Notes: generated by a model from the sequence alone, not told the origin. Counted from the stretch's first letter, positions 22,545-40,008 are shown. The stretch: DNA of 64,000 nt from Roseiarcus sp. (GCA_035606915.1 DATNDU010000008.1:12857-76856); one strand, 5' to 3'. Program-made: numbers and translations.

Positions 22545-23444
22545 ATGACAAGCGCCCCCGCCCGGGATTTCCGCGGCTATGGCGGCCACCCGCCCGATGT
22601 GGCCTGGCCCGGGCAGGCCCGGGTCGCCGTCTCCTTCGTCGTCAATTTCGAGGAGGGGGCGGAACTGTCCGTCACCGACGGCGACGAGCGCAACGAAGGC
22701 GCCTATGAGGCGGTCGAGGAAATCGTCGGTTCGCCGGATTTCTGCCAGGACTCGCATTTCGAATACGGCCCCCGCGCCGGCTGGCGGCGCGTCGCCGGCC
22801 TGCTCGCCGCGCACGGCGCACAGGCGACGCTCAACGCCTGCGGCCGCGCCGTCGAGCGCTCGCCCTGGCTCGCGCGCGAGGCGGTGAGCCAAGGCCATGA
22901 GGTGTCCTGCCACGGCTGGCGCTGGGAGCGACACGCGGGCATGAGCGAAGCCGTCGAGCGGCGCGCCATCGCGCTCACGGTAGAGGCGATCCGCGCTGCG
23001 ACGGGCGTCGCGCCGGTCGGCTGGCACACGCGCTCCGCGGCCTCGCTCAACACGCGCCGGCTGCTCAAGCAGCACGGCGGTTTCCTCTACGATAGCGACG
23101 CCTACAGCGACGATCTGCCATTCTTCGTCGAGGTCGAGGGCGAAAGCAGGCTCGTGCTGCCCTACGCCTTCGACACCAACGACATGAATTTTTTCCGCAC
23201 GCCGCGTTTCGTCACCGGACAGGATTTCGCCGATTACGTGATCGCCGCTTTCGACCGGCTCTGGCGCGAGGGCGCGAGCGCGCCGCGCATGTTGTCGATC
23301 GGCCTGCATTTGCGGATGATCGGCCGCCCGGGCCGCATCGGCGGGTTGGAGACGATCCTGGCGCATATGCGCCAGCGCGGCGGCGCCTGGATGGCCCGGC
23401 GCGACGCCATCGCCCGCCACTGGTTGGCCAATGTTGAGGCGTGA
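22545..23444 (+). CDS. Polysaccharide-deacetylase-fold hydrolase, PuuE-like allantoinase
   Basis: RDFRGYG...WPGQARVAVSFVVNFEEGAE, FEYGPRAG, HEVSCHGWRW, LPYAFDTND, SIGLHLRMIGRPGR. Confidence 0.85.
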   Translation: MTSAPARDFRGYGGHPPDVAWPGQARVAVSFVVNFEEGAELSVTDGDERNEGAYEAVEEIVGSPDFCQDSHFEYGPRAGWRRVAGLLAAHGAQATLNACGRAVERSPWLAREAVSQGHEVSCHGWRWERHAGMSEAVERRAIALTVEAIRAATGVAPVGWHTRSAASLNTRRLLKQHGGFLYDSDAYSDDLPFFVEVEGESRLVLPYAFDTNDMNFFRTPRFVTGQDFADYVIAAFDRLWREGASAPRMLSIGLHLRMIGRPGRIGGLETILAHMRQRGGAWMARRDAIARHWLANVEA

Positions 23445-23451
23445 GGCGTCC

Positions 23452-24147
23452 GTGCGCCGCCTCCTCATCATCAATCCCAACACCACCGAGGCGATGACGC
23501 AGCGTATCGCCGCCCAGGCGCGGCGCTTTGCGGCCCCCGATATGCGCATTGAGACGCGCACGGCGGCCTTCGGACATTCGGTGATCGCCAGCCGCGCGGC
23601 CTACGCCATCGCCGCTCACGCGGCGCTGGAGGCCTACGCGAGGGCGGGCGGCGGCTTCGACGCCGTCATCCTCGCCTGCTTCGGCGATCCCGGCCTGGAA
23701 GCGCTTCGCGAGGTCGCGAGCGAGCCGGTGTTCGGGCTTGCGGAAGCCTCGATCCGGGACGCCGACGGCTACGGCGAACCCTTCGCGATTCTGACTTTGG
23801 GCCGGGCCTGGATCGGAATGCTCGAAGAGCGCGTTCTGCTGGCGCGCGTTGGCGCGCCCTTCCTCGGCGTCTTCGCCGGCGAGGGAACCGGGCTCGACGC
23901 CGCGCACGACGCCGGCGCGGTCGTCGCGCGCCTTCAGGGGCTCGCCGACGCGGCGGTGCGCGCCGGCGCCGGGGCGCTCATCCTCGGCGGCGCCGCGCTC
24001 GCGGGCCTCACGGCGGAGTTGCGGTGCGAGGCGCGCCTCGTCGATTGCGTTGAGGCGACAATGCGCGCGGTGGCCGGCGCGCTCGCGAGCCAGGCCGGAT
24101 CCGTCGCGCCGCCGGGCTCCACCTGCCTCGCGCCGCCGTCGGAGTGA
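23452..24147 (+). CDS. Asp/Glu/hydantoin (allantoin) racemase family protein
   Basis: LIINPNTTEAMT, ILACFGDPGL, LILGGAAL (second catalytic Cys apparently replaced by Gly). GTG start 23452. Confidence 0.85.
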   Translation: MRRLLIINPNTTEAMTQRIAAQARRFAAPDMRIETRTAAFGHSVIASRAAYAIAAHAALEAYARAGGGFDAVILACFGDPGLEALREVASEPVFGLAEASIRDADGYGEPFAILTLGRAWIGMLEERVLLARVGAPFLGVFAGEGTGLDAAHDAGAVVARLQGLADAAVRAGAGALILGGAALAGLTAELRCEARLVDCVEATMRAVAGALASQAGSVAPPGSTCLAPPSE

Positions 24148-24572: not shown

Positions 24573-25256
24573 CTAGGCCACGCCATGGTTTGTAAAGAGG
24601 TTGCGGCTGACGGAGTCTATGTGGGTTCGCATGGCGCTTGCCGCCGCCTCGGCGTCGCGCCGCAACAGCGCCTCGACTATCGCTTTGTGCTCCTCGCAAT
24701 AAGTTTGCCGCCGCTGCGGGCTGAAGGATCGTCGTTTGATATCGCGCCATAGGTCTTGGCTTCGGATCAGGCGTAGGATCTCGTGTAGATGATTGAGCAA
24801 ATCGTTGCGTGACGCCGAGAAAATTCGTTGATGCAGCTCGGCGTCCCAATGCTCGAACGTTTCCATATCGACGGCTTCGACCGCGGCGGCGTGCGAGAGG
24901 GCGACTTCGTGAATGTCGTTGGCGCTGGCGTTTGTCGCGGCAAGGGCGGCGGCGCGCGGTTCGAAGATCTGCCGCACCGCCATCATGTCGATTGGACTCA
25001 CGCCCGTCAGTTTCTGAACAACGCTCATGAAATCGGGGCTGCCGCCATGGCGCAGAAAAGTGCCGCGTCCCACCTCACGGGTCAGCGAACCATCGGCGGC
25101 GATCTTGTCGATGGCGCCGCGCACGGTGTTTCTCGCCACCTTGTATTCCGCCGCCAGGTCGCGCTCGTTGGGAAGGCGGCGGCTATCGCTCCACTCGCCG
25201 GACTCTATGCGCCGGCGAAGCGATTGCTCGATTTCCGCGGCGATTAGTTTCGGCAT
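24573..25256 (-). CDS. GntR/FadR-family transcriptional regulator
   Basis: RLPNERDLAAEYKVARNTVRGAI...GRGTF plus FCD (DAELHQRIFSASRN, EEHKAIVEAL). Divergent from the FAH operon. Confidence 0.93.
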   Translation of the reverse strand: MPKLIAAEIEQSLRRRIESGEWSDSRRLPNERDLAAEYKVARNTVRGAIDKIAADGSLTREVGRGTFLRHGGSPDFMSVVQKLTGVSPIDMMAVRQIFEPRAAALAATNASANDIHEVALSHAAAVEAVDMETFEHWDAELHQRIFSASRNDLLNHLHEILRLIRSQDLWRDIKRRSFSPQRRQTYCEEHKAIVEALLRRDAEAAASAMRTHIDSVSRNLFTNHGVA

Positions 25257-25501
25257 CGCTCTGCGCCAACATGCACCAATGCTAGACCAATTAGCACAAG
25301 CCAGACTCCCTGTCGAGCGCTGTCTTGATGCTTATTTGCCATAACAAAAGCGTTATGTGATAAGTATGTACGTCGCCGCTACGGGGAGATTCGGCGCGCC
25401 GAGCGCAAATTTCGGGCGAGTCGAAAGCGTTTTTCGATTTCTCGCTTGCGTTTTAAACCAAGGAGCATTTCAATGGCTCAGAATACGAGGGAGCGGCCGA
25501 G

Positions 25502-26374
25502 ATGAAGATAGCGACTTATCGCGTCGGCGCCGAGCGTCGGGTCGGCCTGATCGATGAGGCGCGCCAGACGGTTTCACCATTCGATATCCCGGAAGCCGAA
25601 GCGCGGCAGGGCGTTCTCGCCCTCATCGACCGAGCGACCCTGCCGCGCCTGCTTTCGCCCATGCCCTTGAAGGAAGCTGTCCTCGAAGCGCCGATCCCCC
25701 GACCCCGGCGCAACATCTACTGCGTCGGCAAGAACTATCACGAACACGCAAAGGAATTCGCGTCGAGCGGCTTCGATTCCGGCGCCAGCGCCGGCGCGGT
25801 GCCGAAGCATCCGATCATTTTTTCGAAAGTGCCGGAATGCGTGATCGCGCATCGCCATCCGGTTTCGATCGACCGCAATGTCTCGAACGCCATCGACTAC
25901 GAAGCCGAACTCGGCGTAATCATCGGCAAGGGCGGGCGGGGCATCCGGCCGTCCAACGCGCTCGACCATATCTGGGGCTATACGATCATCAACGACGTGA
26001 CCGCCCGCGATCTGCAAGGCCTCTATAGTCAATGGTTGATCGGCAAATCCCAGGACACATTCTGTCCGATGGGCCCCTGGGCCGTTACGAAAGACGAGAT
26101 CGATCTCGGCGATACAAAAATAAAGTGCTGGATCAACGGTGAACTGCGCCAGAACGCCAACGTCCGCGACCTCATTTTCGACGTCCCGACAATCATCGCG
26201 ACGATTTCCGCCGGCGTTACGCTGATGCCGGGCGACGTGATCGCCACCGGCACTCCCGTGGGGGTTGGCATCGGCTTCAAACCACCGAAATACCTTGCCC
26301 CCGGCGACGTCGCGCGTATCGAGATTTCCGGCATCGGCGTATTGGAAAACGAAATCCAGGAGTATCGGGCGTGA
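25502..26374 (+). CDS. Fumarylacetoacetate hydrolase family protein
   Basis: CVGKNYHEH, IFSKVP, DYEAELGVIIGK, INDVTARDLQ, GKSQDTFCPMGP, GDVIATGTP. Confidence 0.93.
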   Translation: MKIATYRVGAERRVGLIDEARQTVSPFDIPEAEARQGVLALIDRATLPRLLSPMPLKEAVLEAPIPRPRRNIYCVGKNYHEHAKEFASSGFDSGASAGAVPKHPIIFSKVPECVIAHRHPVSIDRNVSNAIDYEAELGVIIGKGGRGIRPSNALDHIWGYTIINDVTARDLQGLYSQWLIGKSQDTFCPMGPWAVTKDEIDLGDTKIKCWINGELRQNANVRDLIFDVPTIIATISAGVTLMPGDVIATGTPVGVGIGFKPPKYLAPGDVARIEISGIGVLENEIQEYRA

Positions 26375-27153
26375 CAGGCGCAGCGGTCGGTCAAACCCAG
26401 ATCGAGATCGACGGCTCGGGCTCGGCGATCGTTTTCGTGCACGGTCTCGGCGGCGACTCGAACTCGTTCCAAATGTTGCTGGACGCGCTTTCCGGGTTTC
26501 GCTGCATCCGCCTCGACCTGCCGGGTTCCGGTCGTTCGCCGCGCCCGTTCGAGGCGCTCTCGATCGATCTGTTCACGCAGAGCGTGGCTGAGGTCGTCGA
26601 CAAGGTCGGCGGCGGCGCCGTTCACCTCGTCAGTCATTCCATGGGCACGCTCGTGTGCCAGCATGTCGCCGCGCGCTTTCCCGAGTCCGTCAAGAGCCTG
26701 ACGCTGTTTGGACCGATCGTGGAACCGTCCGACGCGTCGCGGCAGCGTCTGCGCGATCGCGCGCTCGCGGCGCGGCGGGGCGGATTGATAGACATCGCGG
26801 ACGCGGTCGCGCTCGGCGGAACATCGTCGACCTCGCGCAACGCAAACCCGCTGCTTGCTCCGTTCGTGCGCGAGAGCCACATGCGGCAGGACCCGGAAGG
26901 ATTTGCGCAAACCTGCGAAGCGCTCGCCGCCGGCGTCGCCGCGGACCTGAGGCTCCTGCGGCGCCCAATGCTGATCGTGACCGGCGACGAGGACGCGGTC
27001 GCGCCGCCGAGCGCCGCGCGGGCGCTTGCCGACAAGGTCAAAGGGGCTAAGCTGAAAATCCTGGAGCATTGCGGGCATTGGACGCCCTTCGAGCGTCCGC
27101 AAGACTGCGCGCGACTGCTTTCGGAGCACGTAAGGGCGCACGAAATGGCCTGA
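26371..27153 (+). CDS. Alpha/beta-fold hydrolase (PcaD-like)
   Basis: VHGLGG, DLPGSGRS, nucleophile elbow SHSMG, GDED, CGHW. GTGA overlap with FAH. Confidence 0.88.
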   Translation: MTGAAVGQTQIEIDGSGSAIVFVHGLGGDSNSFQMLLDALSGFRCIRLDLPGSGRSPRPFEALSIDLFTQSVAEVVDKVGGGAVHLVSHSMGTLVCQHVAARFPESVKSLTLFGPIVEPSDASRQRLRDRALAARRGGLIDIADAVALGGTSSTSRNANPLLAPFVRESHMRQDPEGFAQTCEALAAGVAADLRLLRRPMLIVTGDEDAVAPPSAARALADKVKGAKLKILEHCGHWTPFERPQDCARLLSEHVRAHEMA

Positions 27154-27207
27154 CGGGCTGCGCGCATTGGCTGCGCCTGCAAAGGGCCGGCATGACGATG
27201 AGGAGGA

Positions 27208-28533
27208 ATGACCATGGCGGACGAGTATAACGGAACCAACGGCTCGGGCGGCGTCATCTTCACGAACGTCCGGATTCTCGACGGCACCGGCGAGTATCCC
27301 TACACCGGCGAAGTCACGGTGCAGGGCAACCGCATCAAACAGGTGACCAAGGGCTCCTCGCGGCTGAACGGCGGCGGCGGCATGGGCGGGCAGACGGTGA
27401 TTGACGGCATGGGTGCGACGCTCATGCCCGGCCTCTGCGATGCGCATCTGCATCTTTCCTGGAACAACGCGCCGGGCATCGACCCCATCCAGATGATGCC
27501 GCCCGAGGAGCATACGCTCGTCACCGCCCAGATGGCCAAGCTGGTGCTGGACGCCGGTTTCACCATGGGCTGCGGCGCCGCGGCGGCCAAGCCTCGCCTC
27601 GACGTCGTGGTTCGCAACGCGATCAACAAAGGCATGATCCCCGGCCCGCGCTACCGCGCCGCCGGCCCGGAAATCACCACCGTCGGCGGTCTCGGCGATT
27701 CCGCGCCCTCGCATATCCCGCATGAAGGGCTGAACCTCGGCATCGTCGTTTCCGGTCCTGAGGAGGTGCGCCGCACCGTGCGCACGCTGATTAAATACGG
27801 CGTCGATTCCATCAAGCTCAATCTGTCCGGCGAAGAAATCACCGGCATGGGGGCCGAAGAGACGCCGATGGCGGAAGAGGAAGTTGCGATGGCGGTGCGC
27901 GAGGCCAAGGCGCGAGGCCTCGTACTCGCCGCTCACGCGCGCTCGTCAGGTTCCGTCATTCAGTGCGTGCGGCACGGCATTCAAAATATCTATCACGCCT
28001 CCTTCGCCAACGAGGAAGCGCTGGATATGCTGGAGGCCAACAAGGACAAACACTTTGTCGCGCCCGGTCTTGCGTGGCTTATCAACACGGCGCGCCACGC
28101 CGGGGAATGGGGGATCAAGCCGGGCTCGCCGCTCACCATCGCCTACGAGCGCGAACTCGAGCACGCCGTGGAGAGTTGCAAGAAGATGCATAAGCGTGGC
28201 ATTCGCGTCCTCATCGGCGGCGACTATGGTTTTGCCTGGACGCCGCAGGGCACCAACGCCAAGGACCTTGAGATCTTCGTCGACATGCTCGGCTTCTCGC
28301 CGATGGAAGCCATCATCGCCGCCACCAAACTCGGGGGTCAGATCATGATGCGCGGCGACGAACTCGGGATGATCAAGCCGGGCTATCTCGCCGACATGCT
28401 GCTCGTCGACGGCGACCCGATCGCCAACATTCGCGTCTTACAGGACAAGGCGCGGCTCATCGCCATCATGAAAGACGGCCAGTTCCACAAAGCGCCAAAG
28501 ATGAATGAACAACGCCGACGGATGACCGCGTGA
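27208..28533 (+). CDS. Metal-dependent amidohydrolase (prolidase/ochratoxinase-like subgroup)
   Basis: PGLCDAHLH, GVDSIKL, AHARS, IYHASF, GGDYG, GYLADMLLVDGDP. Confidence 0.88.
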   Translation: MTMADEYNGTNGSGGVIFTNVRILDGTGEYPYTGEVTVQGNRIKQVTKGSSRLNGGGGMGGQTVIDGMGATLMPGLCDAHLHLSWNNAPGIDPIQMMPPEEHTLVTAQMAKLVLDAGFTMGCGAAAAKPRLDVVVRNAINKGMIPGPRYRAAGPEITTVGGLGDSAPSHIPHEGLNLGIVVSGPEEVRRTVRTLIKYGVDSIKLNLSGEEITGMGAEETPMAEEEVAMAVREAKARGLVLAAHARSSGSVIQCVRHGIQNIYHASFANEEALDMLEANKDKHFVAPGLAWLINTARHAGEWGIKPGSPLTIAYERELEHAVESCKKMHKRGIRVLIGGDYGFAWTPQGTNAKDLEIFVDMLGFSPMEAIIAATKLGGQIMMRGDELGMIKPGYLADMLLVDGDPIANIRVLQDKARLIAIMKDGQFHKAPKMNEQRRRMTA

Positions 28534-30587
28534 GCCTTACTAGCGCCAGACCCGCTGAAGGCGTCACGGCTCGTCAGGCCTGGACGGGACTTGCCCTGCT
28601 CGCCGGGGCGATCTTCCTTTGGATGGTGTTTGGCGTCTGGCCGGATTGGCTGGATTGGCTGCTCATCGGTAAAAAGGCCTTCGTCAGCGCAGTGCTCAAC
28701 GGCGTTACGCTGGCGGGCCTTTATTTCCTCGTCGCTAGCGGTTTCACGCTGGTTTTCGGATTGATGCGCAACGTCAATCTCGCGCACGGCTCGCTCTACC
28801 TGCTCGGCGCCTATATCGGTTACGACGTGACGCAATGGACCAATAATTGGTTCACGGGCGTCCTCGCCGGCGCGCTGGCCGTAGGCGTCGTCGGCGCCCT
28901 GTTGCAAATCCTCGTGTTCCAACGCCTCGCCGGCGACGAACTGCGGCAGACGCTGGTGACGCTCGGCATCTCCATTGTCGCGGCCGATCTCATGCTGGCG
29001 ATCTGGGGCGGCAAGACCTACCAGTTCACAATTCCGGACTGGCTCGACGGCGCCGTCAACACGCCGATCATCACCGCGATCAGGTCAAACGGCCAGATCG
29101 TGACCATGCGCTATCCCTTCTATCGCCTCGTCGTGCTCGCCGCCTCGATCGTCATCGGCGTTGGCCTGTGGCTGGCGCTCAACAAGAGCAAAGTCGGCAT
29201 GATGATCCGCGCCGGCGTTGACGATCGCGCCATGCTTTCGATGACGGGCGTCAATGTTCGCCTGCTGTTCGTCGGCGTTTTCGCGATCGGCGGCATGCTC
29301 GCCGGCTTTTCCGGCGTTATTGGCGGCTCTGCGCTGTCGGTAGCCCCGGGCGAAGACATCCGCTATTTGCTGGCGTCGCTGGTCGTTGTGATCGTCGGCG
29401 GCATGGGCTCAATCACTGGCGCCGCTATCGGCGCGTTGCTGATTGGCCTGGCCGAGCAGATCGGGCTGGTCTATTTCCCCACCTATGGCATCGTCCTTAC
29501 CTTCGTCATCATGGTCGTGACCCTGGCGTTGCGTCCGCAGGGGATCATGGGCAACGCCCGCACGCGCGATGCCGATCCGCTGCGGGCGGCTTCGCCCGGC
29601 GATATCGTCTCGCCCGAATTCACGCCGGCGACCGCCTGGCTCGGGCTCGCGCTCATCTTATTCCCGCTCGTCGTATCGCCATTCGTCGCCTTCCAGATTG
29701 GCGCGCAGACCTTGATCTTCGGCATGATCGCGCTCTCGCTGATGCTGCTTGCGGGCTATGGCGGGATGGTTTCTCTCGCCCAACTGACGGTAGCGGGCGT
29801 CGCCGGTTACAGCGTCGCTATTCTCGGCCCTAACGGAACCGGCGTACTCGGCTTCGGCTGGCCCTGGTGGCTTTACGTGCCGGCGGCGATCCTGATCGCG
29901 GGCGGCGTTTCGGCGTTGATTGGCATGATCGCCGTGCGCACTGCCGGCATCTACACGATCATGATCACGCTGGCGGTCGCGACGGCGTTCTACTATTTCG
30001 TGCAGCAGAACTACTCCCTGTTCAACGGACACTCAGGCTTTCGCGGCGTCGCGCCGCCGACGGTGTTCGGCGTCGAATGGCATCGGCAGATTCCCTTCTA
30101 CTATCTGAGCCTTGGCATTGCCGCGCTCGCCTATAGCGCCGTCATCTATTGTGCTCGATCCACGTTTGGGCGGGCGCTGATGGCGACGCGCGACAACGCG
30201 CGCCGAGCGAGCGCGGTCGGCTACGATGTCACGTTGCATCGGGTGGTCGCCTATTTCTTCGCCGGAATCATCGCCGGCGCCGCGGGCGTACTGTACGTCT
30301 GGTTCAACGGCCGCATTTCTCCGGGCTCGGTGGGAGTTGGCCAGGTGATAGGCATCCTCGTCATCGCCGTGATCGGCGGTCTGCGCCATCCCATCGGGCC
30401 TTTCATCGGCGCGGCGGTCTATGTCTTCCTGAACACCTTCGCGATCAACATCGTTGGCGCCGACCGCTTCAACACGCTTATCGGACTGGTCTTTCTCGTG
30501 ATTGTTTTCGCGTCGCCTGATGGCCTGCTCGGCCTCTGGCGTCGGCTCGCGCCGTACTTGGCCGCAAAACCTCTGCGCGAATCCTAG
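28530..30587 (+). CDS. Branched-chain-amino-acid-type ABC permease, LivH-LivM fusion
   Basis: First half SGFTLVFGLMRNVNLAHG...IVGGMGS; second half LAGYGGMVSLAQ, RDNARRASAVG, VIGGLRHPIGP; 685 aa. Confidence 0.9.
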   Translation: MSLTSARPAEGVTARQAWTGLALLAGAIFLWMVFGVWPDWLDWLLIGKKAFVSAVLNGVTLAGLYFLVASGFTLVFGLMRNVNLAHGSLYLLGAYIGYDVTQWTNNWFTGVLAGALAVGVVGALLQILVFQRLAGDELRQTLVTLGISIVAADLMLAIWGGKTYQFTIPDWLDGAVNTPIITAIRSNGQIVTMRYPFYRLVVLAASIVIGVGLWLALNKSKVGMMIRAGVDDRAMLSMTGVNVRLLFVGVFAIGGMLAGFSGVIGGSALSVAPGEDIRYLLASLVVVIVGGMGSITGAAIGALLIGLAEQIGLVYFPTYGIVLTFVIMVVTLALRPQGIMGNARTRDADPLRAASPGDIVSPEFTPATAWLGLALILFPLVVSPFVAFQIGAQTLIFGMIALSLMLLAGYGGMVSLAQLTVAGVAGYSVAILGPNGTGVLGFGWPWWLYVPAAILIAGGVSALIGMIAVRTAGIYTIMITLAVATAFYYFVQQNYSLFNGHSGFRGVAPPTVFGVEWHRQIPFYYLSLGIAALAYSAVIYCARSTFGRALMATRDNARRASAVGYDVTLHRVVAYFFAGIIAGAAGVLYVWFNGRISPGSVGVGQVIGILVIAVIGGLRHPIGPFIGAAVYVFLNTFAINIVGADRFNTLIGLVFLVIVFASPDGLLGLWRRLAPYLAAKPLRES

Positions 30588-30637
30588 GGGTTGGCTTCAC
30601 GTTCAACAAAGCCCAACATGGGCGTTCAAGGGAGGGA

Positions 30638-31891
30638 ATGATGAAGGGTACTGCGAAGACTTTGCTGATGGCGGCTTTGTTGGGCGGTGTGGCGCTTATG
30701 CCGCACGCGGCTCTCGCCGACGGGACGATCAAGGTTGGCCTGTTGGCGACGCTGGAGGGCGCGTTCACCGTGCTCGGCCAGGACAGCATGCGCGGCGCGG
30801 AACTGGCGCTGAAAGAACACAATTACATGGCTGGCGGCAAGAAGATCGAAATCATCAAAGGCTCGTCCGACGCTTCACCGGACAGCGCCGTCAAAGCCGC
30901 GCGAAAGCTAGTCGAGCAGGACGGCGTGGCAATCCTGATCGGGCCGCTGTCCGGCGATGAAGGGTTGGCCATTAAAGACTACGCCAAGACCCAGCCGAAC
31001 GTGACCTTTGTCAATGGCGTCTCTGCGGCGCAGGACACGACGCTTCGCGATCCCGCTCCCAACTTCTTCCGCTTCAACACCGATGGCGCTCAGTGGATGG
31101 CTGGGCTCGGCGACTACGTCTACAACGTGAAGAAATACAAGACGGTGGTCACCGTCGCCGAGGATTATTCCTTTCCTTATAGCCAGGTGTTTGGCTTCAT
31201 GGCGTCGTTCTGCCGCGATGGCGGCCATGTGCCGAAGAAGTTCTGGGTGCCGATTGGCAACAAGGACTTCTCCTCGGTCATCGCCGCAATTCCAGACAAT
31301 GTCGACGCGATTTATGTTGCGCTTGGCGGCGCCGATGGCGTGAATTTCCTCACGCAATACCAGCAGGCTGGCGGGACCGCGCCGCTGATTGGCGGTTCGA
31401 TCACCGTCGATCAGACGGTGCTCAGCACCAAAGGCAAGCAGCGCGATTACATCGTCGGCACGCCGTCAGCCGGGCCGATCGCCGACAACGACCCTGGCGC
31501 GGCTTGGAAGAAGTTCGTCGCCGACTACAAGGCCGCCTTCAAGGACGGTTTCCCGTCGCCGTCGCTGTTTGCGCAAGGCTATTACATCAATACCGAGGCG
31601 GTGCTGCTCGCGCTCGACAAGATCCACGGCGACCTCTCCGGCGGCGAAAAGAAATTGCGCGATGCGCTCAGCACTCTCCAGTTCGAGACGCCGACCGGGC
31701 TCGTCAAGCTGGACAAGAACCGTCAGGCGATCGCCGACAATTATCTGACCGAAGTCGCCAAGGCCGACGATGGGCATCTCTACAACAGGGTCATCAAGGT
31801 GGTGCACAACGTCAACCAAACTTTGGGCATTCCCGAGGCGGACTTCCTCAAGCTCGGCAAAGCGAGCCGCGACAACCCCGACTGCAAGTAA
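30638..31891 (+). CDS. ABC substrate-binding protein, Liv/aromatic-compound-binding type
   Basis: Signal peptide, IKVGLLATLEG, IGPLSGDEG, EDYSFP, DFSSVI. Confidence 0.9.
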   Translation: MMKGTAKTLLMAALLGGVALMPHAALADGTIKVGLLATLEGAFTVLGQDSMRGAELALKEHNYMAGGKKIEIIKGSSDASPDSAVKAARKLVEQDGVAILIGPLSGDEGLAIKDYAKTQPNVTFVNGVSAAQDTTLRDPAPNFFRFNTDGAQWMAGLGDYVYNVKKYKTVVTVAEDYSFPYSQVFGFMASFCRDGGHVPKKFWVPIGNKDFSSVIAAIPDNVDAIYVALGGADGVNFLTQYQQAGGTAPLIGGSITVDQTVLSTKGKQRDYIVGTPSAGPIADNDPGAAWKKFVADYKAAFKDGFPSPSLFAQGYYINTEAVLLALDKIHGDLSGGEKKLRDALSTLQFETPTGLVKLDKNRQAIADNYLTEVAKADDGHLYNRVIKVVHNVNQTLGIPEADFLKLGKASRDNPDCK

Positions 31892-31911
31892 GCCCCGCGC
31901 GAGATCCCACC

Positions 31912-32697
31912 ATGGCAGGCGACAAAGCCGCTGAACGTCTTTCCTCCAACAGCGTTCATGCGCTGGAGTTGGCGGGCGTCGGGCATCAATTTGGGGCGCT
32001 TGTCGCGCTCGCCGACATCAACCTCCGGGTTGCCGCCGGCGAGCGGCGGGCTATTCTCGGCTCGAACGGCGCCGGCAAGACGACGCTGTTCAATGCCGTG
32101 ACAGGAGATTTTCCGCCGACGTCGGGGCGGATTCGCTTCTTCGGCGAGGACATCACCGCTTTTCCGGTTCAGGAACGGATCCGGCGCGGACTGCGCCGGA
32201 CCTATCAAATCAGCCAGTTGTTCGGCGGACTGACGGTGCTCGACAGCATCTTCGTCGCCTGCCGCGGCGTATCGCATCGCCGCCTCTCGCTTCTGCGCCC
32301 GTCGGCGAACGACGTCACCATGGCGCAAGCACGCTCGATCGCCCATTCCGTCCAACTCGACGACATTTTAGAGACGCCGGTTTCCGTTCTCAGCCATGGA
32401 CAGCAGCGCCAGCTTGAGATCGCGCTGGCGCTGGCTGGCGCGCCGCGCTTCATCCTGTTTGACGAACCGGCGGCCGGCCTATCGCCTTCCGAGCGGCGCG
32501 ACCTGGTCGCGATCCTCAACGCGCTGCCGGCCTATATCGGCTATATTATTATTGAGCACGATCTCGACGTGGCGCTGCGCGTATCGACCTACGTCACTAT
32601 GATGCACAATGGGCGTATTTTCACAGAAGGCACGCCCGAGCAGATCGAGAACGACCGCCAAGTGCAGGAGATCTATCTCGGAGCGGGTCATGGCTAA
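31912..32697 (+). CDS. ABC ATP-binding protein (LivG-like)
   Basis: GSNGAGKTT, LSHGQQRQLEIALAL, FDEPAAGL, IEHD. Confidence 0.92.
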   Translation: MAGDKAAERLSSNSVHALELAGVGHQFGALVALADINLRVAAGERRAILGSNGAGKTTLFNAVTGDFPPTSGRIRFFGEDITAFPVQERIRRGLRRTYQISQLFGGLTVLDSIFVACRGVSHRRLSLLRPSANDVTMAQARSIAHSVQLDDILETPVSVLSHGQQRQLEIALALAGAPRFILFDEPAAGLSPSERRDLVAILNALPAYIGYIIIEHDLDVALRVSTYVTMMHNGRIFTEGTPEQIENDRQVQEIYLGAGHG

Positions 32698-34906
32698 GCG
32701 ACCCGCTTCCGCATCGGCGGCTCTGAAGCCGATCCTGCAAGTGCAGGATTTGCAAGTTTACTACGGCGAGTCGCACGCCTTGCAGGGCGTCTCGTTGACG
32801 CTTGAGCGCGGCGTGCTGTCGGTTGTCGGCCGCAATGGCATGGGCAAGACGACGCTTTGCAATACGATCGTCGGCCTGATGCACGCGCGCTCGGGCGGCG
32901 TGCGCTTCGATGGACGCGACATATCCAATCTGGAGCCATACCAGATCGTGCGCGCCGGCGTCGGCTTCGTGCCGCAGGGCCGTCGCCTGTGGCCAAGCCT
33001 CTCCGTCGACGAGACGCTTCGTCTCAGCGAACGGGACGGAGCGGCCGGACATTCCTGGACGGTTGAGCGCGTCTATTCCACCTTTCCGCGCCTAGCCGAG
33101 CGGCGAAGCAACGGCGGCGGGCAGCTATCCGGGGGCGAGCAGCAGATGCTGGCGATTTCGCGCGCCCTGCTGAGCAATCCGCGCCTCCTGGTCATGGACG
33201 AACCCACCGAAGGCTTGGCGCCTGTAATCGTTACGCAGGTCCGAGACCTGCTGCTTCGCCTCTCCAGCGAAGAGGACCTGTCGGTTCTCGTCGTCGAGCA
33301 GAATATCGGCGTCGCCACCTCCGTTTCCGACTCCGTCGCCATCATGGTCAATGGCCGCATCAACCGGATCATGGATGCGGGGGACCTGGCGCGAGACCGC
33401 GATCTCCAGCAGCGATTGCTCGGCGTCGGCCGCTTCGGCGAAGAGGCGGCGTCGACGCACGAAGCGGCGCCCGAGGCAATCGCGGGAGAGGCCAAGGTCT
33501 TCCGGGTGGCGCGCACAGGCGCCGCGAGCGCAGACGGCGCCTCGCCCGTCTACCGGGCCGACCGATTGCCCAATCGCTGGGGCGTGCGCAGCGCCTCCGC
33601 CAAGCCGATCACCGCCGAAACCGAGGTGAGCGCCGCCTCACCGCCGGCGTTCACGATTCCCTTTGCTGAACGCGTTGGACGGATCGCGCTGGTTGCTGGC
33701 ACGTTCGACACCAAGAGCGCCGAGTTGCGCTTCATCGGCGACCGGTTGCGCGCGCTGAACATTGCCGTGCGCACCGTCGATCTCTCGACGTCGGGAAAGA
33801 TTTCGCGCGCCGATGTGACGCCGGTGCAGGTCGCAGCGATGCATCCGCGCGGCTCCAGCGCAGTGTTTTCGGGCGATCGCGGCGCTTCCGTCACCGCCAT
33901 GGCGGAAGCTTTCGGCCGCTGGATCGAGCGCGAGCGCGGTATTGGCGGCGTCATATCCGCAGGCGGCTCCGGGGGCACTTCGCTGGCGACGGCGGGCATG
34001 CGCAGGTTGCCGCTCGGCATTCCCAAGATCATGATCTCGACCGTCGCCTCGGGCGAAGTCGGCCGCTACGTGGGCGCCGCCGACATCTTGATGATGCATT
34101 CGGTCGCCGACGTTCAGGGCTTGAATGTCATCACCGAACAAATCCTCGGCAACGCCGCCAACGCGCTCGCCGGCATGATCTCGGGCCTGCCCACGGCCGA
34201 GGCGCGGGAGGCGCGGCGGCGCTTGGCGCGGCCCGCCGTTGGCATCACCATGTTCGGCGTGACGACGCCGGCAGTGCAGGCGATCACCAAGCGCCTCGAA
34301 GGCGACTTTGACTGTCTCGTGTTCCATGCGACCGGGACGGGCGGGCGTTCGATGGAGGCCCTCGGCGACTCCGGGCTGCTCGCCGGCTTCATCGACCTCA
34401 CGACGACGGAGGTCGCTGATATGGTCGTCGGCGGCGTCTTCGCCGCCGATGCCGATCGCTTCGGCGCGCCGATCCGGACCGGCTTGCCTTATGTCGGATC
34501 GGTCGGCGCGATGGATATGGTCAATTTCGGACCGCGCGACACGATGCCCGAGCGTTTCCGCAACCGCCGCCTCGTTGTCCATAACGCAAACGTCACCCTC
34601 ATGCGCACGACGCGCGACGAAAACAGGGCGATCGGCGAGTGGATGGGATCGCGCCTCAACCTGATGGACGGCCCTGTGCGGCTTCTGCTGCCGCTGGGCG
34701 GCGTGTCTGCGCTGGATGCCGCCGGCCAGCCGTTTCACGATCCGGAGGCCGATAGCGCGCTCTTCGAGGCGCTCGAAAGGACGGTGCGCCAAAACGCGCG
34801 GCGCAGCATCGAGCGCGTCGAGGCCAACATCAACGACGACAAATTCGTCGCGGCCGTCGTGGGTGCCTTCGCGGCGATCTCGCCGCGCCGCGAAAGGAGA
34901 GCTTGA
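32690..34906 (+). CDS. LivF-like ABC ATPase fused to a Tm-1-like/UPF0261 ATP-binding domain
   Basis: N-terminus [24 protein letters not shown]; C-terminus [86 protein letters not shown]. Confidence 0.88.
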
Positions 34907-35748
34907 TGCCCAGGATCGAGCGCGAGGCCATCCTCGCCAAATTGCAGGCGATGAAGCGCCAGCGCATTCCGATCATCGGCGGCGGCGCCGGCACAGGTCT
35001 GTCGGCCAAATGCGAAGAAGCCGGCGGCATCGACCTCATCGTCATTTACAATTCGGGGCGCTACCGGATGGCGGGTCGCGGGTCGCTCGCCGGCCTCCTC
35101 GCCTATGGCAACGCCAATGAAATCGTCCGCGAGATGGCCTATGAGGTGCTGCCCGTCGTCATCCGCACGCCGGTGCTCGCCGGCGTCAACGGCACCGATC
35201 CGTTCTGCCTCTTCGACTCCTTTCTCGACGATTTGAAACGCCTGGGCTTCTCCGGCGTGCAGAATTTCCCGACCGTGGGCCTCATCGACGGATTGTTTCG
35301 CGCCAACCTCGAAGAGACCGGCATGTCCTATGCCCTGGAGGTCGAGATGATCGCGTGCGCCCATGCCAAGGCCATGCTGACAACCCCTTACGTATTTTGC
35401 GCCGCAGACGCCGCAGCGATGGCGAGAGCCGGCGCCGACATCATTGTCTGCCACCTCGGCCTGACGACCGGCGGAACCATCGGCGCGCAGACCGGCCGCA
35501 AGCTTGCTGAGTGTCCCGCCCTTGTCGATGAATGGGCGGCAGCGGCGCTGGCGGTGAACCCCGAGGCGATCGTCCTGGTTCACGGCGGTCCGGTCGCGCA
35601 GCCGAGCGATGCGGAATTCATCCTTCGCAACACCAAGCATTGCCACGGCTTCTATGGCGCCTCCTCGATGGAGCGCCTGCCGACCGAACTGGCGATGACG
35701 GACCAGACAAAGAAGTTCAAGGCGATCGCCTTCGGGCGATCGGCCTAA
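34903..35748 (+). CDS. TIM-barrel signal transduction / PEP-hydrolase-family protein (homologue of the Tm-1 C-terminal domain)
   Basis: [74 protein letters not shown]. Confidence 0.88.
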
Positions 35749-35763
35749 TCAGGAGCAAGGACC

Positions 35764-37959
35764 ATGGTTGCGCAGACCTTGGGATCACTGATCCTTTGGC
35801 TCATCATTCTGGCGATCGCCATTGTAATCGCCGTTTATCTCTTGCGCTGGCTGTATCAGCGCTCGACGAAGGAAACGGCGTTCGTTCGCACCGGCTTCGG
35901 CGGCGAGAAAGTCGTCGTCAGCGGCGGCGCGTTCGTCATTCCGGTGCTGCACGACATTACGCCGGTCAACATGTCCGTGACGCGCATCGAGGTGGCGCGG
36001 CGCGAGACCCAGGCGCTCATCACCAAAAACCGAATGCGCGTCGACATCATCGCCGAGTTCTTCGTCAAGGTCGATTCGTCGAGGGAAGCCGTCAGCTTCG
36101 CCGCGCAAACGCTGGGGCGTCGCACTTTGCAGGCGGACGGCACGCGCGATCTTCTGGAAGGGCGCTTCGCCTCGGCGCTGCGGACGGTGGCGGCGCAAAT
36201 GACGCTGGAGCAGATGCACGAGCAGCGGCAGGAATACGCGCAGCGCGTCAAGACCGTGGCGCTGGAGGGCCTCTCGCAGAACGGACTCCACCTGGAGAGC
36301 GTCGCGATTGTCGACCTCGACCAGACCCATCTCGAATTCTTCGACAGTTCGAACGCCTTCGACGCGGAAGGACTGACGCAGCTTACCGAGACCATCGAGT
36401 CGCGTCGCCGCATGCGCAACGAGATCGAACAGCGCACCCAAATCGAAATCCGCACCCAGAATCTCGACGCCCAGCGGAAGTCGCTCGAAATCGATCGCGA
36501 GGGGGAATATGCGCGGCTGGCGCAGGAACAGGACATCGAGGTGCGGCGCACGGCGCAACGCGTCGAACTCGCCCGCGACCGCGCCGTTCGCGATCAGGAA
36601 AGCGAACAGGCCCTGCTCGCCGCGCGCGAGGAGGTCGAAAAGTCAAAATTCGTCCAGGAACGCAATCTCGCCGAGGCGCGAATACAGAACCAGGAGGACA
36701 TCGAGCAGCGCGAGATCGCCCGCCGTCGCCATGTCGACGAAGTCGAGATGAAGACGCGCGAGCTTACGGAGCGCGAGCAGATCGTTTTGGAACTGGCGCT
36801 GGAAAAGGCGCGGATTCAGCGTGAACGCGAGCAGAGCGAACTGGAGCTGGATCGCCGCCGCGTGCTGGAACTTGCGGAGATCAACCGCCAGATCGTCGTC
36901 GCCGCGAAGAACGCGGAACTGGCGCAGGCCGAATCCGAACGCAAGCGCACAGAGATCGTCGCCAACCAAGACGTGGAGTCGACCCGGATCGCGCAGGAGC
37001 GTGTTCTGGATCAAGCCCGCATAGAACGCGAACGGTTGCTCGACGCTCTCAATATCGCCAAACGTCAGGCTTTTGAGGAGGCCGAAATCAGCTCCGGCGA
37101 GGAAATCGAGCGGGCGCGGATCGCCACCGAACGCGGCCTCGCCGAAGCGCGCGTGGCGCGCGACGGCGACCTTCGTAAACTCGAAGTCGAGCGCGACAAA
37201 TCGGTACAAGTGGCCGAAATCGATAGCGTCATCGAAATCGCCAAAAAGTCGGCGGAGCGTTCGGCGGCGATCGCGATTGCGGAAACGGCGCGAGCCCAAG
37301 CTGTCGCTGCCGAGGAACAAGCGTTCACCGTGCGGGAAACCGAGATCGCTCACCGCCGCAAAGCGACGGATCTCATCGCGGCGGCGCGGGAAACGGAGCG
37401 AGACGCGCTGCGTCTCACGGGCAAGGCGGAGGCCGAGAGGGCCGCGGCGACAAGCTTCGCTGACGCCGTCAGGATCGCCGCTCAGGGCGAAGCCGAGGCC
37501 GAAAAGATCAAAGCTCTCGCGGCGGCCGAACGTTACGAGGTTGACGCCAAGGGCGCGATGCAACTCAACGAGGCCGAGAACACACTTTCCGAATCCGCCC
37601 GTCTCTCGCGATTCCGCGGTAAGCTTCTGGAGCGCATCGAGGGCATCGTGCGCGAGAGCGTGCGGCCGATGGAGAAGATCGAAGGGATCAAAATATTGCA
37701 TATCGACGGGGCCAACGGCGCGCCCGGCGCAAACCGCAATGTCACCGACGAAGTGATCGACTCCGCCCTGCGCTACCGCGTCCAGGCGCCGATGATCGAC
37801 AGCCTGATGAAAGAGATCGGCATCGAGGGCGGCAGTCTTGGGCGCATGACTGAGGTGTTGCGCGACGCCAAGGACATCGAAAGCCTGGCCTCGAAGCGCA
37901 CGAAGCCCGCGCATGGCGCCACGCCGGCGAACGGTAGCGACCGCGATGACGAACGCTGA
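35764..37959 (+). CDS. Long flotillin/SPFH (band 7) family protein
   Basis: N-terminal TM, AFVRTGFGGEKVV...PVLHDITPVNM, SPFH core, FDAEGLT, long E/R/A coiled coil, C-terminal RYEVDAKG...EAEN, KIEGIKIL, LRYRVQAP. Confidence 0.88.
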   Translation: MVAQTLGSLILWLIILAIAIVIAVYLLRWLYQRSTKETAFVRTGFGGEKVVVSGGAFVIPVLHDITPVNMSVTRIEVARRETQALITKNRMRVDIIAEFFVKVDSSREAVSFAAQTLGRRTLQADGTRDLLEGRFASALRTVAAQMTLEQMHEQRQEYAQRVKTVALEGLSQNGLHLESVAIVDLDQTHLEFFDSSNAFDAEGLTQLTETIESRRRMRNEIEQRTQIEIRTQNLDAQRKSLEIDREGEYARLAQEQDIEVRRTAQRVELARDRAVRDQESEQALLAAREEVEKSKFVQERNLAEARIQNQEDIEQREIARRRHVDEVEMKTRELTEREQIVLELALEKARIQREREQSELELDRRRVLELAEINRQIVVAAKNAELAQAESERKRTEIVANQDVESTRIAQERVLDQARIERERLLDALNIAKRQAFEEAEISSGEEIERARIATERGLAEARVARDGDLRKLEVERDKSVQVAEIDSVIEIAKKSAERSAAIAIAETARAQAVAAEEQAFTVRETEIAHRRKATDLIAAARETERDALRLTGKAEAERAAATSFADAVRIAAQGEAEAEKIKALAAAERYEVDAKGAMQLNEAENTLSESARLSRFRGKLLERIEGIVRESVRPMEKIEGIKILHIDGANGAPGANRNVTDEVIDSALRYRVQAPMIDSLMKEIGIEGGSLGRMTEVLRDAKDIESLASKRTKPAHGATPANGSDRDDER

Positions 37960-37972
37960 GGGGCGGGGCTGA

Positions 37973-38410
37973 ATGGCGAAGGTCTACGCCTCCATTGTAG
38001 TTCCGGCCAACGCCAGCGCCGTCTGGGACGTTATCCGGGATTTCAATGCGCTGCCAAAATGGACGCCGTTCGTCGCCGAGAGCCGCATCGAGCAGAATGC
38101 GGCCTCCGACAGAGTCGGCTGCATCCGCAACTTTCGCTTGAAGAACGGCGGCCGCGTCCGCGAGCGGCTGCTGGCGCTGTCCGACTACGAAATGTCCTGT
38201 ACCTACACGATCCTCGAAAGCCCGATGGGCGTGGAGAATTATCTGGCGACACTGCGTTTGATTCCGGTGACGGAAAGCGACCACACGTTCGCGGAGTGGA
38301 GCGCCGAATTCGACGCGGCGCCTGAGCGCGAGGATATCTTGGTTGAGGATGTCGGGCGCAACGTGTTCGCAGCCGGGCTGAGTGCGCTGAAGTCGCGGTT
38401 CTCGCGCTGA
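37973..38410 (+). CDS. SRPBCC/START-like ligand-binding protein (polyketide cyclase 2 / MxaD-like)
   Basis: VWDVIRDFNALPKWTP, VGCIRNFRL, RERLLALSD, YTILESP, WSAEFD. Confidence 0.88.
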   Translation: MAKVYASIVVPANASAVWDVIRDFNALPKWTPFVAESRIEQNAASDRVGCIRNFRLKNGGRVRERLLALSDYEMSCTYTILESPMGVENYLATLRLIPVTESDHTFAEWSAEFDAAPEREDILVEDVGRNVFAAGLSALKSRFSR

Positions 38411-38413
38411 GCC

Positions 38414-39886
38414 ATGGTCGATATTCGCCGCAGTACGATCGTCAATGCGCCTCTCGATGAGGTCTGGGCGATCCTGCGCGATTTCAACGGCCACGAGCGT
38501 TGGCACCCCAGCGTCACGTCGAGCGTCATCGAGGATGACGCCGATGCCGACCGCATCGGCGCGGTGCGCAATTTCCGGCTCAGCGACGGCGGGCGAATTC
38601 GCGAGCAGCTTTTAGCGCTCTCCGACGTCGCCAAGAGCTTTTCCTATTGCATCCTCGAAGCGCCGGTTTCGTTACGCAACTACGTCGCCCATGTGCGCCT
38701 TCGCGCGGTTACTGAGAACGATACCTGCCTTTGGCAATGGTCCGCCTCGTTCGACCCGCTGCCGGCCGAAAGAGAGCGACTCACGCGGTTTGTCGCGCAA
38801 GACATCATGGCCGCTGGCTTTCGCGCCGTGTCCGGCTTGTTAGTTGGCGAAACCGGAGCGTCATCGCCGCCCGCCGACGCGCCGAAAGCGCTGTCGGCGC
38901 CCTCGGGCCTGGAGGCGACAGCGATCATTCTGACGCGCTACGGCGGCCCCGACGCGCTGGTTGCACAGAAAATCCTCGTCGCCAGCCCAGGTCCCGGCGA
39001 GGCCCGGATTCGACAGACCGCGATTGGCGTCAATTTTATTGACGTCTACTGCCGTCGGGGCAGCTTCCAGATAGTCGCGCCTCCCGGCATTATCGGCATG
39101 GAGGCCGCGGGCGTTGTCGAAAGCGTCGGTCCCGGCGTCACCAACGTGAAGCCTGGCGATCGCGTTGGCTATGCCTGCGCGCCGCCGGGATCCTATACAT
39201 CGATCCGCACCATGCGAACCGATCTTCTTGTCCAACTGCCGGCCCTGCTGACCGACAACGCCGCGGCGTCGATGCTGTTGAAGGGAATAACGGCGGGGTT
39301 TCTCCTGCATGACGTCTATGCTGTGAGGCCGGGCGATGTCGTTGTCGTGCATGCGGCGGCAGGCGGCGTCGGGCAACTGCTCTGCCGCTGGGCGAAGGCG
39401 CTCGGCGCGACGGTGATTGGCGCAACATCGAGCGACGCAAAGGCCGAGCAGGCGAAGCGGGTTGGTTGCGATCACGTGATTATCACCACGCGGCAGGACA
39501 TCGCGGAAGCGGTGATGCGGTTGACCGACGAGCGCGGCGCCGAAGTTGTCTACGATGCCGTCGGCAGAGACACGTTCGAGGCCTCGATCAACTGCCTTTC
39601 GCCTCGCGGTCATCTCGTCAGCTTCGGTCAGGCCTCGGGCGATGTCGGCGCCTATTCCATCGACAAGCTCGCCAACCGTTCCGTCACCCTCTCCCGACCC
39701 AATTACGTGCATTACACAGACACGCCGTCGAAACTCAAACAGCAAGCCGAAAGGCTATTTGGCGCCCTCGAGTCCGGTATTCTCGTAGCCGAGCGGCCAC
39801 GCCCTTACGCTCTTGCCAACGTCTGCGACGCCCACGCCGACTTGGAAAGTCGGAAAACGACGGGCGCATTAGTGCTGATTCCGTAG
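38414..39886 (+). CDS. SRPBCC domain fused to a zinc-free MDR quinone oxidoreductase
   Basis: N-terminal paralogue of the upstream SRPBCC, then YGGPDAL, GVNFIDVYCRRG, GMEAAGVV, HAAAGGVG, YDAVG, HADLESRKTTG. Confidence 0.88.
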   Translation: MVDIRRSTIVNAPLDEVWAILRDFNGHERWHPSVTSSVIEDDADADRIGAVRNFRLSDGGRIREQLLALSDVAKSFSYCILEAPVSLRNYVAHVRLRAVTENDTCLWQWSASFDPLPAERERLTRFVAQDIMAAGFRAVSGLLVGETGASSPPADAPKALSAPSGLEATAIILTRYGGPDALVAQKILVASPGPGEARIRQTAIGVNFIDVYCRRGSFQIVAPPGIIGMEAAGVVESVGPGVTNVKPGDRVGYACAPPGSYTSIRTMRTDLLVQLPALLTDNAAASMLLKGITAGFLLHDVYAVRPGDVVVVHAAAGGVGQLLCRWAKALGATVIGATSSDAKAEQAKRVGCDHVIITTRQDIAEAVMRLTDERGAEVVYDAVGRDTFEASINCLSPRGHLVSFGQASGDVGAYSIDKLANRSVTLSRPNYVHYTDTPSKLKQQAERLFGALESGILVAERPRPYALANVCDAHADLESRKTTGALVLIP

Positions 39887-40008
39887 CATACCCCGCCGAC
39901 CTGCTGACAATGTTTGACGATCGCGTCCGTCGCCACATTCCTGAACCCCTGCGGGCGCGGGGTTTCGCCGTGGCTTTGCCACATGTCTCAGGTCGTCCGG
40001 CGAGCGCC

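Follow-up and report, generated by a model that had tools for sequence, protein, structure and literature searches.

A Liv-type importer operon with a UPF0261-fused ATPase and a dedicated flotillin, conserved in Roseiarcus and other Proteobacteria

We analysed a 64,000-nucleotide stretch of DNA from Roseiarcus sp. (GCA_035606915.1, DATNDU010000008.1:12857-76856; the whole stretch is called the window, and positions are counted from its first letter) that contains an operon-like run of 11 genes for a catabolic ATP-binding cassette (ABC) importer, enzymes and a flotillin. According to the open reading frame (ORF) list and to Pfam and NCBIfam scans, all 11 genes lie on the (+) strand between 25502 and 39886, i.e. 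over 14,385 bp. The first three encode an FAH-family enzyme (gene 1, FAHD/HpaG-like, 25502-26374, PF01557 at 237 bits), an alpha/beta-fold hydrolase that is PcaD-like, i.e. enol-lactonase-like (gene 2, 26371-27153, Abhydrolase_1 at 108 bits), and a metal-dependent amidohydrolase of the carboxypeptidase/prolidase/ochratoxinase-like group (gene 3, 27208-28533, Amidohydro_1). These are followed by a single-chain LivH+LivM-type permease (gene 4, 28530-30587, PF02653 in two stretches, 217 bits), a Peripla_BP_6 binding protein with a Sec signal peptide (gene 5, 30638-31891, PF13458 at 196 bits), a LivG-type ABC ATPase (gene 6, 31912-32697, ABC_tran and BCA_ABC_TP_C) and a LivF::UPF0261 fusion of 738 residues (gene 7, 32690-34906, ABC_tran, PF06792 and PF23189). 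The distal genes encode a PEP-hydrolase-like TIM barrel (gene 8, TBST, a homologue of the C-terminal half of Tm-1, 34903-35748, PF09370 at 415 bits), a long flotillin of 731 aa (gene 9, 35764-37959, Band_7 and Flot), a free-standing SRPBCC (Polyketide_cyc2) ligand-binding protein (gene 10, 37973-38410, PF10604 at 97 bits) and an SRPBCC::QOR protein, i.e. an SRPBCC domain fused to an MDR-family reductase of the NAD(P)H:quinone-oxidoreductase type (gene 11, 38414-39886, PF10604, ADH_N and ADH_zinc_N). All of the Pfam domain calls for these genes lie far above the Pfam cut-offs.

The genes are tightly packed. There is a 4-bp GTGA overlap between genes 1 and 2 at 26371 and another between genes 3 and 4 at 28530, the LivG and fusion genes overlap by 8 bp at 32690, and the fusion and TIM-barrel genes share TTGA at 34903. 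Gaps of 15, 13 and 3 bp precede the flotillin, SRPBCC and SRPBCC::QOR genes respectively, and the remaining gaps are 54, 50 (the two largest) and 20 bp; the true ATG of LivG, set from the sequence, is at 31912, 20 bp past the stop of the binding protein. A sequence-only reading of this DNA had described the co-directional run with these overlaps and gaps, and each junction was confirmed in the ORF coordinates. The gene content that it listed also stood, except that it mentioned neither the fusion of LivF to UPF0261 in gene 7 nor the reductase domain of gene 11.

Genes 4 to 7 provide a complete importer of the HAAT (Liv/Urt) type: Pfam and NCBIfam scans identified a binding protein, two BPD_transp_2 domains and both LivG-type and LivF-type ATPases, so that all five functions of these importers are encoded. 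The permease halves are UrtB/UrtC-like in the NCBIfam scan, and the signal peptide of the binding protein ends in AALA, directly before DG, which puts the start of the mature protein at residue 28. The best solved relatives of the binding protein are 4ZPJ and then 4EY3/4EVQ from Rhodopseudomonas palustris; the latter bind benzoate derivatives, which is a weak lead to the cargo. The importer differs from other Liv/Urt systems in two respects, i.e. LivH and LivM form one chain, and LivF has a 490-residue C-terminal extension consisting of a tether and the UPF0261 domain.

In the fusion protein, a LivF-type ATPase domain (residues 1-245, 32690-33424, 228 bits to UrtE and 169 bits to LivF) is followed by a disordered tether of ~75 residues (residues 246-321, 33425-33652) and by the UPF0261 domain (33653-34906), which corresponds to the N-terminal half of Tm-1 and belongs to the family of the bacterial kinase MarK. 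The UPF0261 domain is complete (residues 322-734), with both PF06792 (184 bits) and PF23189 (290 bits) over the gathering cut-off of 27 and a score of 539 bits against NF002673, whose cut-off is 520. AlphaFold2, run on a 20-sequence alignment of the fusion, predicted two folded domains joined by the disordered tether, with a mean predicted local distance difference test score (pLDDT) of 77 and values of ~85 in the ATPase domain and 25-33 in the tether. Across the 20 orthologues the Walker A, signature and Walker B motifs of the LivF domain are invariant. A P294-x-R296-W297 motif in the tether (33569-33580) is also invariant in the 20-sequence alignment and, by eye, in 65 orthologues, and it is kept in both of the cluster types described below (types A and B); the tether otherwise varies in sequence and length. 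To judge from its sequence, this P-x-R-W motif looks like a short docking motif.

The fusion was found at 57-78% identity in 11 of 40 relatives, the same LivF-UPF0261 domain string occurs in thousands of metagenome proteins, and the fusion is present in at least 571 stretches of species-representative genomes; it is therefore real and old, not an assembly artefact. Its hosts include Roseiarcus, Mesorhizobium, Aestuariivirga, Roseibium, Roseobacter, Fodinicurvata, Roseomonas, Rhizobium, Phyllobacterium and Paracoccaceae, as well as a gammaproteobacterial metagenome-assembled genome (MAG) of the Ectothiorhodospiraceae. Relatives of the fusion (P0027, P0069 and P0096) are named 'ABC transporter permease' by NCBI, which is a misnomer for proteins with no permease domain.

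MarK (Saro_1862), a multiple aromatic kinase of Novosphingobium aromaticivorans, was described in 2025 as an ATP-dependent kinase of acetovanillone and other phenolics, which according to its authors is the first catalytic activity in the UPF0261 family; it is a non-homologous replacement for the dikinases in acetovanillone catabolism (PMC12624787). The statement of the sequence-only reading that bacterial Tm-1-type domains lack an assigned metabolic role is outdated by this kinase (PMC12624787). In a tree of UPF0261 domains, all of the fused domains formed one clade (SH-aLRT, i.e. Shimodaira-Hasegawa-like approximate likelihood ratio test, support of 98) that divides cleanly into A and B subclades and has the nearest unfused proteins as its sister. 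Tomato Tm-1 fell within the next wider clade (SH-aLRT 99), and MarK far outside it on a long branch; the UPF0261 domain scored 322 bits against Tm-1 (3WRY) and 182 bits against MarK (9MPY). The host's own genome contains a second, unfused UPF0261 gene (G000:C124:2050-3231, 34% identity) that belongs to a separate, strongly supported clade.

The GTFDTK loop of the fusion aligns with GTADTK in Tm-1 and CTQDTK in MarK E16K, keeping the ATP-contacting lysine (Tm-1 K20 = MarK K16), and D340, T341 and K342 are invariant in the 20 orthologues. In the alignment to 9MPY, MarK residues K16, G195, H219 and H304 are all conserved. The domain nevertheless failed a comparison with the MarK pocket, as four of the seven residues differ (T196V, F283M, I285N and H348L) and G195, H219 and H304 are kept. 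Acetovanillone is therefore an unlikely substrate here; the pattern, in which hydroxyl-binding positions are kept and specificity positions changed, fits an active kinase with another substrate, as far as an alignment can indicate. The fused domain thus shares with MarK the Pfam pair PF06792 and PF23189 and the residues named above, whereas MarK is a free-standing homodimer with neither transporter fusion nor flotillin linkage. Tomato Tm-1 and the plant Tm-1-like proteins (3WRV-3WRY) combine UPF0261 with a PF09370 TIM barrel, encoded here by neighbouring genes, and Tm-1 shares a 99%-supported clade with the fused domains and their nearest unfused relatives. However, the plant UPF0261 domain is fused to the TIM barrel and the one studied here to an ABC ATPase, and Tm-1 is an inhibitor of a viral replicase for which no catalysis is described.

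The TIM barrel scored 398 bits against Mll9387 (PDB 2P10). The flotillin has an N-terminal membrane anchor (a hydrophobic segment at residues ~8-27), an SPFH domain (PF01145, 58 bits), a long E/R/A-rich coiled coil and a C-terminal Flot domain (PF15975, 115 bits); a phmmer search against the PDB gave no match at E <= 0.001. It shares this build (anchor, SPFH/Band_7 domain, coiled coil and Flot domain) with the bacterial flotillins FloT and YqiK, but it scored 54 bits against the FloT model, whose cut-off is 700, it is much longer (731 aa, and ~1,000 aa in type B) and it is fixed in a transporter/enzyme operon. The usual pairing of FloT, FloA and YqiK with NfeD was not found either: no NfeD partner gene lies beside the flotillin, as each of the 11 operon genes, like the genes of the two flanks, falls into another family. 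At one locus (G287:C11:86797-88806) the flotillin that follows a type-A fusion matches only in fragments with in-frame TGA stops; this may reflect a pseudogene or an error of assembly, and no other sampled case suggests that the flotillin is decaying.

Against PF10604 (cut-off 27.4) the free SRPBCC protein scored 97 bits and the fused SRPBCC domain 74 bits. The best solved relatives of the free protein are XoxI (3CNW), 3F08 and 2LE1, and the SRPBCC proteins also give weak PYR/PYL matches. Gene 11 carries a full MDR/quinone-oxidoreductase domain C-terminal of its SRPBCC domain; because it scored 275 bits against NF008024, below the cut-off of 348, the reductase is named to family level only. 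The hydrolases likewise resist finer naming. The FAH-family gene matched no NCBIfam equivalog at cut-off, gene 2 was rejected as the 3-oxoadipate enol-lactonase PcaD proper (TIGR02427, 122 bits against a cut-off of 256) and the amidohydrolase was rejected as an NF051886 equivalog, i.e. as a Xaa-Pro dipeptidase/Cc2672-type carboxypeptidase (217 bits against a cut-off of 500). The best solved relatives of the amidohydrolase are the Cc2672 Arg carboxypeptidase (3MTW, E 4e-40), prolidases and ochratoxin-type amidohydrolases; enzymes of these kinds free a C-terminal amino acid from an acyl group. CoxL/M/S-type molybdenum (Mo) hydroxylase subunits are absent from the window according to Pfam and present in type-B loci.

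Linkage of these genes was followed by tblastn with the window's proteins in 80 species-level loci, flotillin being counted in the 71 that extend at least 3.5 kb downstream, and in an unbiased class sample, i.e. an even set of 301 alphaproteobacterial genomes, 33 of which hold a UPF0261 gene. Copies of the fused clade in the class sample were defined by at least 56% identity. Only Pfam-confirmed families were used; crude ORF clustering gave antisense shadow ORFs in this high-G+C DNA. A flotillin lies downstream of the fusion on the same strand in 71/71 loci. The fusion is followed by an SRPBCC gene in 59/61 loci and by two in 58/61, and preceded by Liv permease genes in 64/64 and by a binding-protein gene in 60/64. 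The class sample agreed: all 13 fused-clade copies have a flotillin within ~2 kb downstream on the same strand, whereas none of nine unfused paralogues is flotillin-linked, and such a flotillin is missing altogether from four of those genomes. In 12 of the 13 fused-clade genomes the amidohydrolase orthologue shares a contig with the fusion and lies no more than ~8 kb from it; in the thirteenth, the fragmentary G217, it is on another contig. The TIM barrel is the least constant member, being found between fusion and flotillin in 51 of the 71 loci; genomes of loci that lack it encode a 63-72% identical copy elsewhere. The gap between TIM barrel and flotillin had a median of 35 bp (range 16-112) in the 80 loci. 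The invariant core consists of the binding protein, permease, LivG, LivF::UPF0261, flotillin and two SRPBCC proteins. The association of the flotillin and SRPBCC genes with the upstream genes, which the sequence-only reading had proposed, is thus strict; as to the conservation of the whole gene order, for which it had proposed a test, the gene set is conserved, but the order itself varies and the TIM barrel may be missing.

Three arrangements were distinguished. Type A1 has the order of the window, i.e. GntR(-), FAH enzyme, hydrolase, amidohydrolase, importer, fusion, (TBST), flotillin, SRPBCC and SRPBCC::QOR, and is found in Roseiarcus, Mesorhizobium, Roseobacter, Fodinicurvata and a gammaproteobacterial MAG. 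Type A2 has the same families, with the three hydrolase genes placed after SRPBCC::QOR and not before the permease (G079, G113, G137, G167 and G321). The SRPBCC::QOR fusion is retained in type-A loci. In type B the regulator is of the AraC family, the flotillin reaches ~1,000 residues, and two free SRPBCC genes are followed by CoxM-CoxS-CoxL with CoxD-like AAA and CoxE-like VWA genes; no A-type hydrolases lie within 15 kb. By this comparison of gene sets, the three hydrolases and the reductase form a type-specific accessory set that is replaced by the Mo hydroxylase in type B. Because the order changes between A1 and A2 while the gene set stays intact, the conservation makes a stronger case for a functional unit than synteny kept by descent alone would make. 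The Roseiarcus-genus genomes (L013-L028) are divided: the cluster is of type A in some species, where identity to the window's fusion is 75-78%, and of type B in others, where it is 57-63%. With both types in one genus, types A and B are exchanged or lost independently of host phylogeny. One of these loci (L028, G027:C3:1-14000) is a second copy of the type-B core that looks degraded, with LivF and UPF0261 in separate short frames. Directly after one type-A2 cluster (L132, G137:C77, 282-2808) there is an unfused UPF0261 gene (39% identity) with TIM-barrel genes on both sides, which appears to be a second, free-standing Tm-1-like module beside the fused one.

Taken together, this conservation makes it very probable that the 11 genes form a single functional unit, which would take up and break down a small molecule. 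The kinase-fused ATPase and the dedicated flotillin appear, from the loci compared, to be fixed and hitherto undescribed features of this catabolic importer operon: the literature on UPF0261, PF06792/PF09370 and flotillins that we searched contains no description of the cluster, of the fusion or of a linkage between flotillin and Tm-1, in keeping with the view of the sequence-only reading that the pathway is uncharacterised.

The closest experimental analogue for the logic of the system is the 3hpd cluster of Ensifer adhaerens HP1, in which ABC-transporter and GntR genes adjoin HpdA1-4 and a PEP-utilising/PPDK-type kinase pair related to cresol/phenol phosphorylating enzymes, and in which the Mo hydroxylase cannot do without either this phenol-type kinase pair or a separate SRPBCC subunit (bioRxiv 10.1101/2020.01.08.898148). 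ABC genes, a GntR regulator, a kinase for a hydroxyl group and a separate SRPBCC protein are thus common to both systems, if the UPF0261 domain is such a kinase. The 3hpd kinase, however, is a PPDK-type dikinase and not a UPF0261 protein, it is separate from the transporter, and no flotillin has been reported from that cluster. Its redox enzyme, like that of type B, is a Mo hydroxylase, whereas the window (type A) has an SRPBCC-fused MDR reductase. Since MarK is a non-homologous replacement for dikinases, type B can be read as kinase plus SRPBCC plus Mo hydroxylase. By the same analogy, type A may be read as kinase plus SRPBCC plus SRPBCC-fused reductase plus hydrolases.

We suggest the following chain of events. 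The binding protein would deliver a compound with a phenolic or enolic hydroxyl, and the tethered kinase domain, at the cytoplasmic exit of the transporter, would phosphorylate the compound as it arrives, both trapping and activating it, together with the TIM barrel where that protein is present. The SRPBCC proteins would then hold the hydrophobic substrate or intermediate, the SRPBCC-fused reductase would reduce a quinone or enone function, and the amidohydrolase, the PcaD-like hydrolase and the FAH enzyme would cleave amide, lactone/ester and diketo-acid bonds respectively. The flotillin would keep the importer and the soluble enzymes together at the membrane, and the FCD-type GntR protein encoded divergently from the operon would be the local regulator, probably responding to a carboxylate. 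We see an even chance that this whole chain, i.e. import, phosphorylation at the transporter, SRPBCC-assisted reduction and hydrolysis, and a flotillin scaffold, is correct; within it, we infer that the UPF0261 domain acts on the cargo as a kinase, and likewise the part played by the TIM barrel, the handling of ligands by the SRPBCC proteins and the scaffolding by the flotillin.

The conserved type-A set has no oxygenase in the loci compared, which argues against a plain benzene-ring pathway and makes a lactone- or amide-bearing quinonoid or enolic compound the likelier substrate. This qualifies the sequence-only reading, which had noted that such enzyme and transporter families typify aromatic or heterocycle catabolism. 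As candidate substrates we considered, and did not choose between, ochratoxin-like amide-lactones, 3-oxo-acyl-homoserine lactones, abscisic-acid-like enones and hydroxypyridines. Alphaproteobacteria of soil, peat, the rhizosphere and the sea commonly carry the module (Roseiarcus, Mesorhizobium, Roseibium and the roseobacter group are examples), and the substrate is therefore probably an abundant natural compound.

Several observations weigh against the proposed chain. As described above, four of the seven MarK pocket residues are replaced, and MarK is distant from the fused domain (182 bits, on a long branch outside the clade); Tm-1, the nearest solved relative, is known solely as an ATP-binding inhibitor protein. 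The similarity of the binding protein to aromatic-acid binders is weak (E 1e-28 to 1e-24), and the TIM barrel is absent from 20/71 loci, mainly type-A loci of Mesorhizobium. As to sampling, the 80 loci were picked by their similarity to the fusion, so that the linkage counts drawn from them are not an unbiased sample, and the class sample is small.

Some of these points bear on the alternative that survives best, although we think it unlikely, namely that the UPF0261 domain is a regulatory or sensor appendage that gates transport by binding ATP or a metabolite, and not a cargo kinase. Its closest solved relative, Tm-1, is known as a nucleotide-binding inhibitor protein and not as an enzyme, and the UPF0261 domain is fused at the C-terminus of a nucleotide-binding domain, where regulatory domains are located in other importers; the C-terminal regulatory domains of MalK, MetN and ModC gate transport. 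The invariant PxRW in the tether also suggests docking over free diffusion. However, the residues with which MarK contacts ATP and the substrate hydroxyl are conserved in the fusion, and the tether is long and disordered, unlike the compact dimer interface of a regulatory domain. The same clade also has unfused members that stand alone, usually paired with a TIM-barrel, enzyme-like partner (PMC5028733), which again speaks against a regulatory appendage.

Rather less likely is a second alternative, in which the flotillin is an assembly or quality-control factor for the membrane complex, and the SRPBCC proteins and the reductase shield the membrane from a reactive quinone-like cargo. That SPFH proteins act together with membrane proteases and assembly factors is well established, e.g. 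for HflK/C and FloT with FtsH. In none of the loci read, however, is the flotillin accompanied by a protease or NfeD gene, and in type B the SRPBCC pair directly precedes the Mo hydroxylase, as it does where SRPBCC is an enzyme subunit. In favour of this alternative, the reductase is of the quinone-oxidoreductase type, and linkage data cannot separate scaffolding from assembly; we nonetheless prefer the flotillin as a scaffold for importer and enzymes.

We consider it improbable that the unit is non-catabolic and that its role is to import and alter a signal or some scarce cofactor-like compound, e.g. a quinone or phenolic that comes from plants or humus, for the purpose of salvage or sensing. 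Three hydrolases of catabolic type are fixed members of the unit, as are, in type B, a Mo hydroxylase with aldehyde and alcohol dehydrogenases, and a divergent regulator of the FCD/GntR repressor type is typical of catabolic operons; these features argue for breakdown of the cargo, whereas a conserved set with neither an oxygenase nor a funnel into a central pathway, and an SRPBCC fold that includes hormone receptors and here gives weak PYR/PYL matches, would suit a signal. Two unrelated adjacent units, catabolic/ABC and flotillin/SRPBCC, that are separately transcribed would be compatible with the 15- and 13-bp gaps if there were internal promoters inside the upstream genes, but are very improbable given a linkage that is strict (71/71 and 13/13), absent for the nine unfused paralogues, spread over alpha- and gammaproteobacterial hosts and able to survive rearrangement of gene order.

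A bolder form of the proposed chain is that the importer performs vectorial phosphorylation, i.e. group translocation without a phosphotransferase system (PTS), inside a dedicated flotillin assembly to which it is docked via PxRW; we think this form unlikely to hold in full. Substrate trapping by phosphorylation at an ABC importer is suggested here and is not known to have been described before. If true, the vectorial-phosphorylation reading would assign a general biochemical role to the Tm-1/UPF0261 family, which is widespread in bacteria, archaea, fungi and plants and has one characterised enzyme (MarK, 2025), and would define for the first time a set of clients of a bacterial flotillin. Few clients of bacterial flotillins have been defined, and membership of this operon names likely partners; the ABC-ATPase-fused UPF0261 clade likewise puts the chemistry of its family at a transporter. 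Cultured carriers of the module are Mesorhizobium sp. L-8-3, M. qingshengii, Fodinicurvata fenggangensis DSM 21160, Rhizobium sp. LjRoot30 and Metarhizobium album.

The regulator divergent from the operon (24573-25256, - strand) has GntR (60 bits) and FCD (79 bits) domains in Pfam and therefore belongs to the FadR subfamily. The sequence-only reading had called it a FadR regulator, which is right as to its divergent orientation and subfamily; as an orthologue of FadR proper it was rejected, with a score of 29 bits against TIGR02812/NF003444, whose cut-offs are 249 and 189. A homologue of this divergent regulator, at 37-81% identity, was found by tblastn in most type-A1 loci. The control region between regulator and operon (25257-25501) contains an A+T-rich island, CATAAC-N6-GTTATG, that was read by hand and is a putative element; an inverted-repeat search of the same region returned no repeat. 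Consensus promoter and terminator matches were no commoner than in shuffled sequence, every one of them lying inside genes, and the terminator scan within the run found 18 against 15.5 expected from shuffled sequence, i.e. background. Sixty nucleotides past the last stop of the operon begins a G+C hairpin, CCCCTGCGGGCGCGGGG followed by TTTC (39946-39962, + strand), which from its fold and coordinates is a candidate terminator with a weak U tract, placed ahead of the convergent cobW-like gene.

Upstream, a polysaccharide-deacetylase-like gene (22545-23444) and a gene of the Asp/Glu/hydantoin-racemase family (23431-24147), both on the (+) strand and overlapping by 14 bp, lie between two GntR genes. 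They were rejected as operon members and left out of the unit because they adjoin the cluster in no other locus examined, and a maleamate-pathway reading built on them was dropped for the same reason. The further of the two GntR genes (21428-22474, - strand) encodes a 348-residue protein with N-terminal HTH_28, HTH_32 and HTH_Tnp_1 domains of transposase type followed by a GntR winged helix-turn-helix and an FCD domain in Pfam, which found no DDE domain in it. The downstream flank of the operon consists of convergent cobW-like and LacI genes, as assigned by Pfam.

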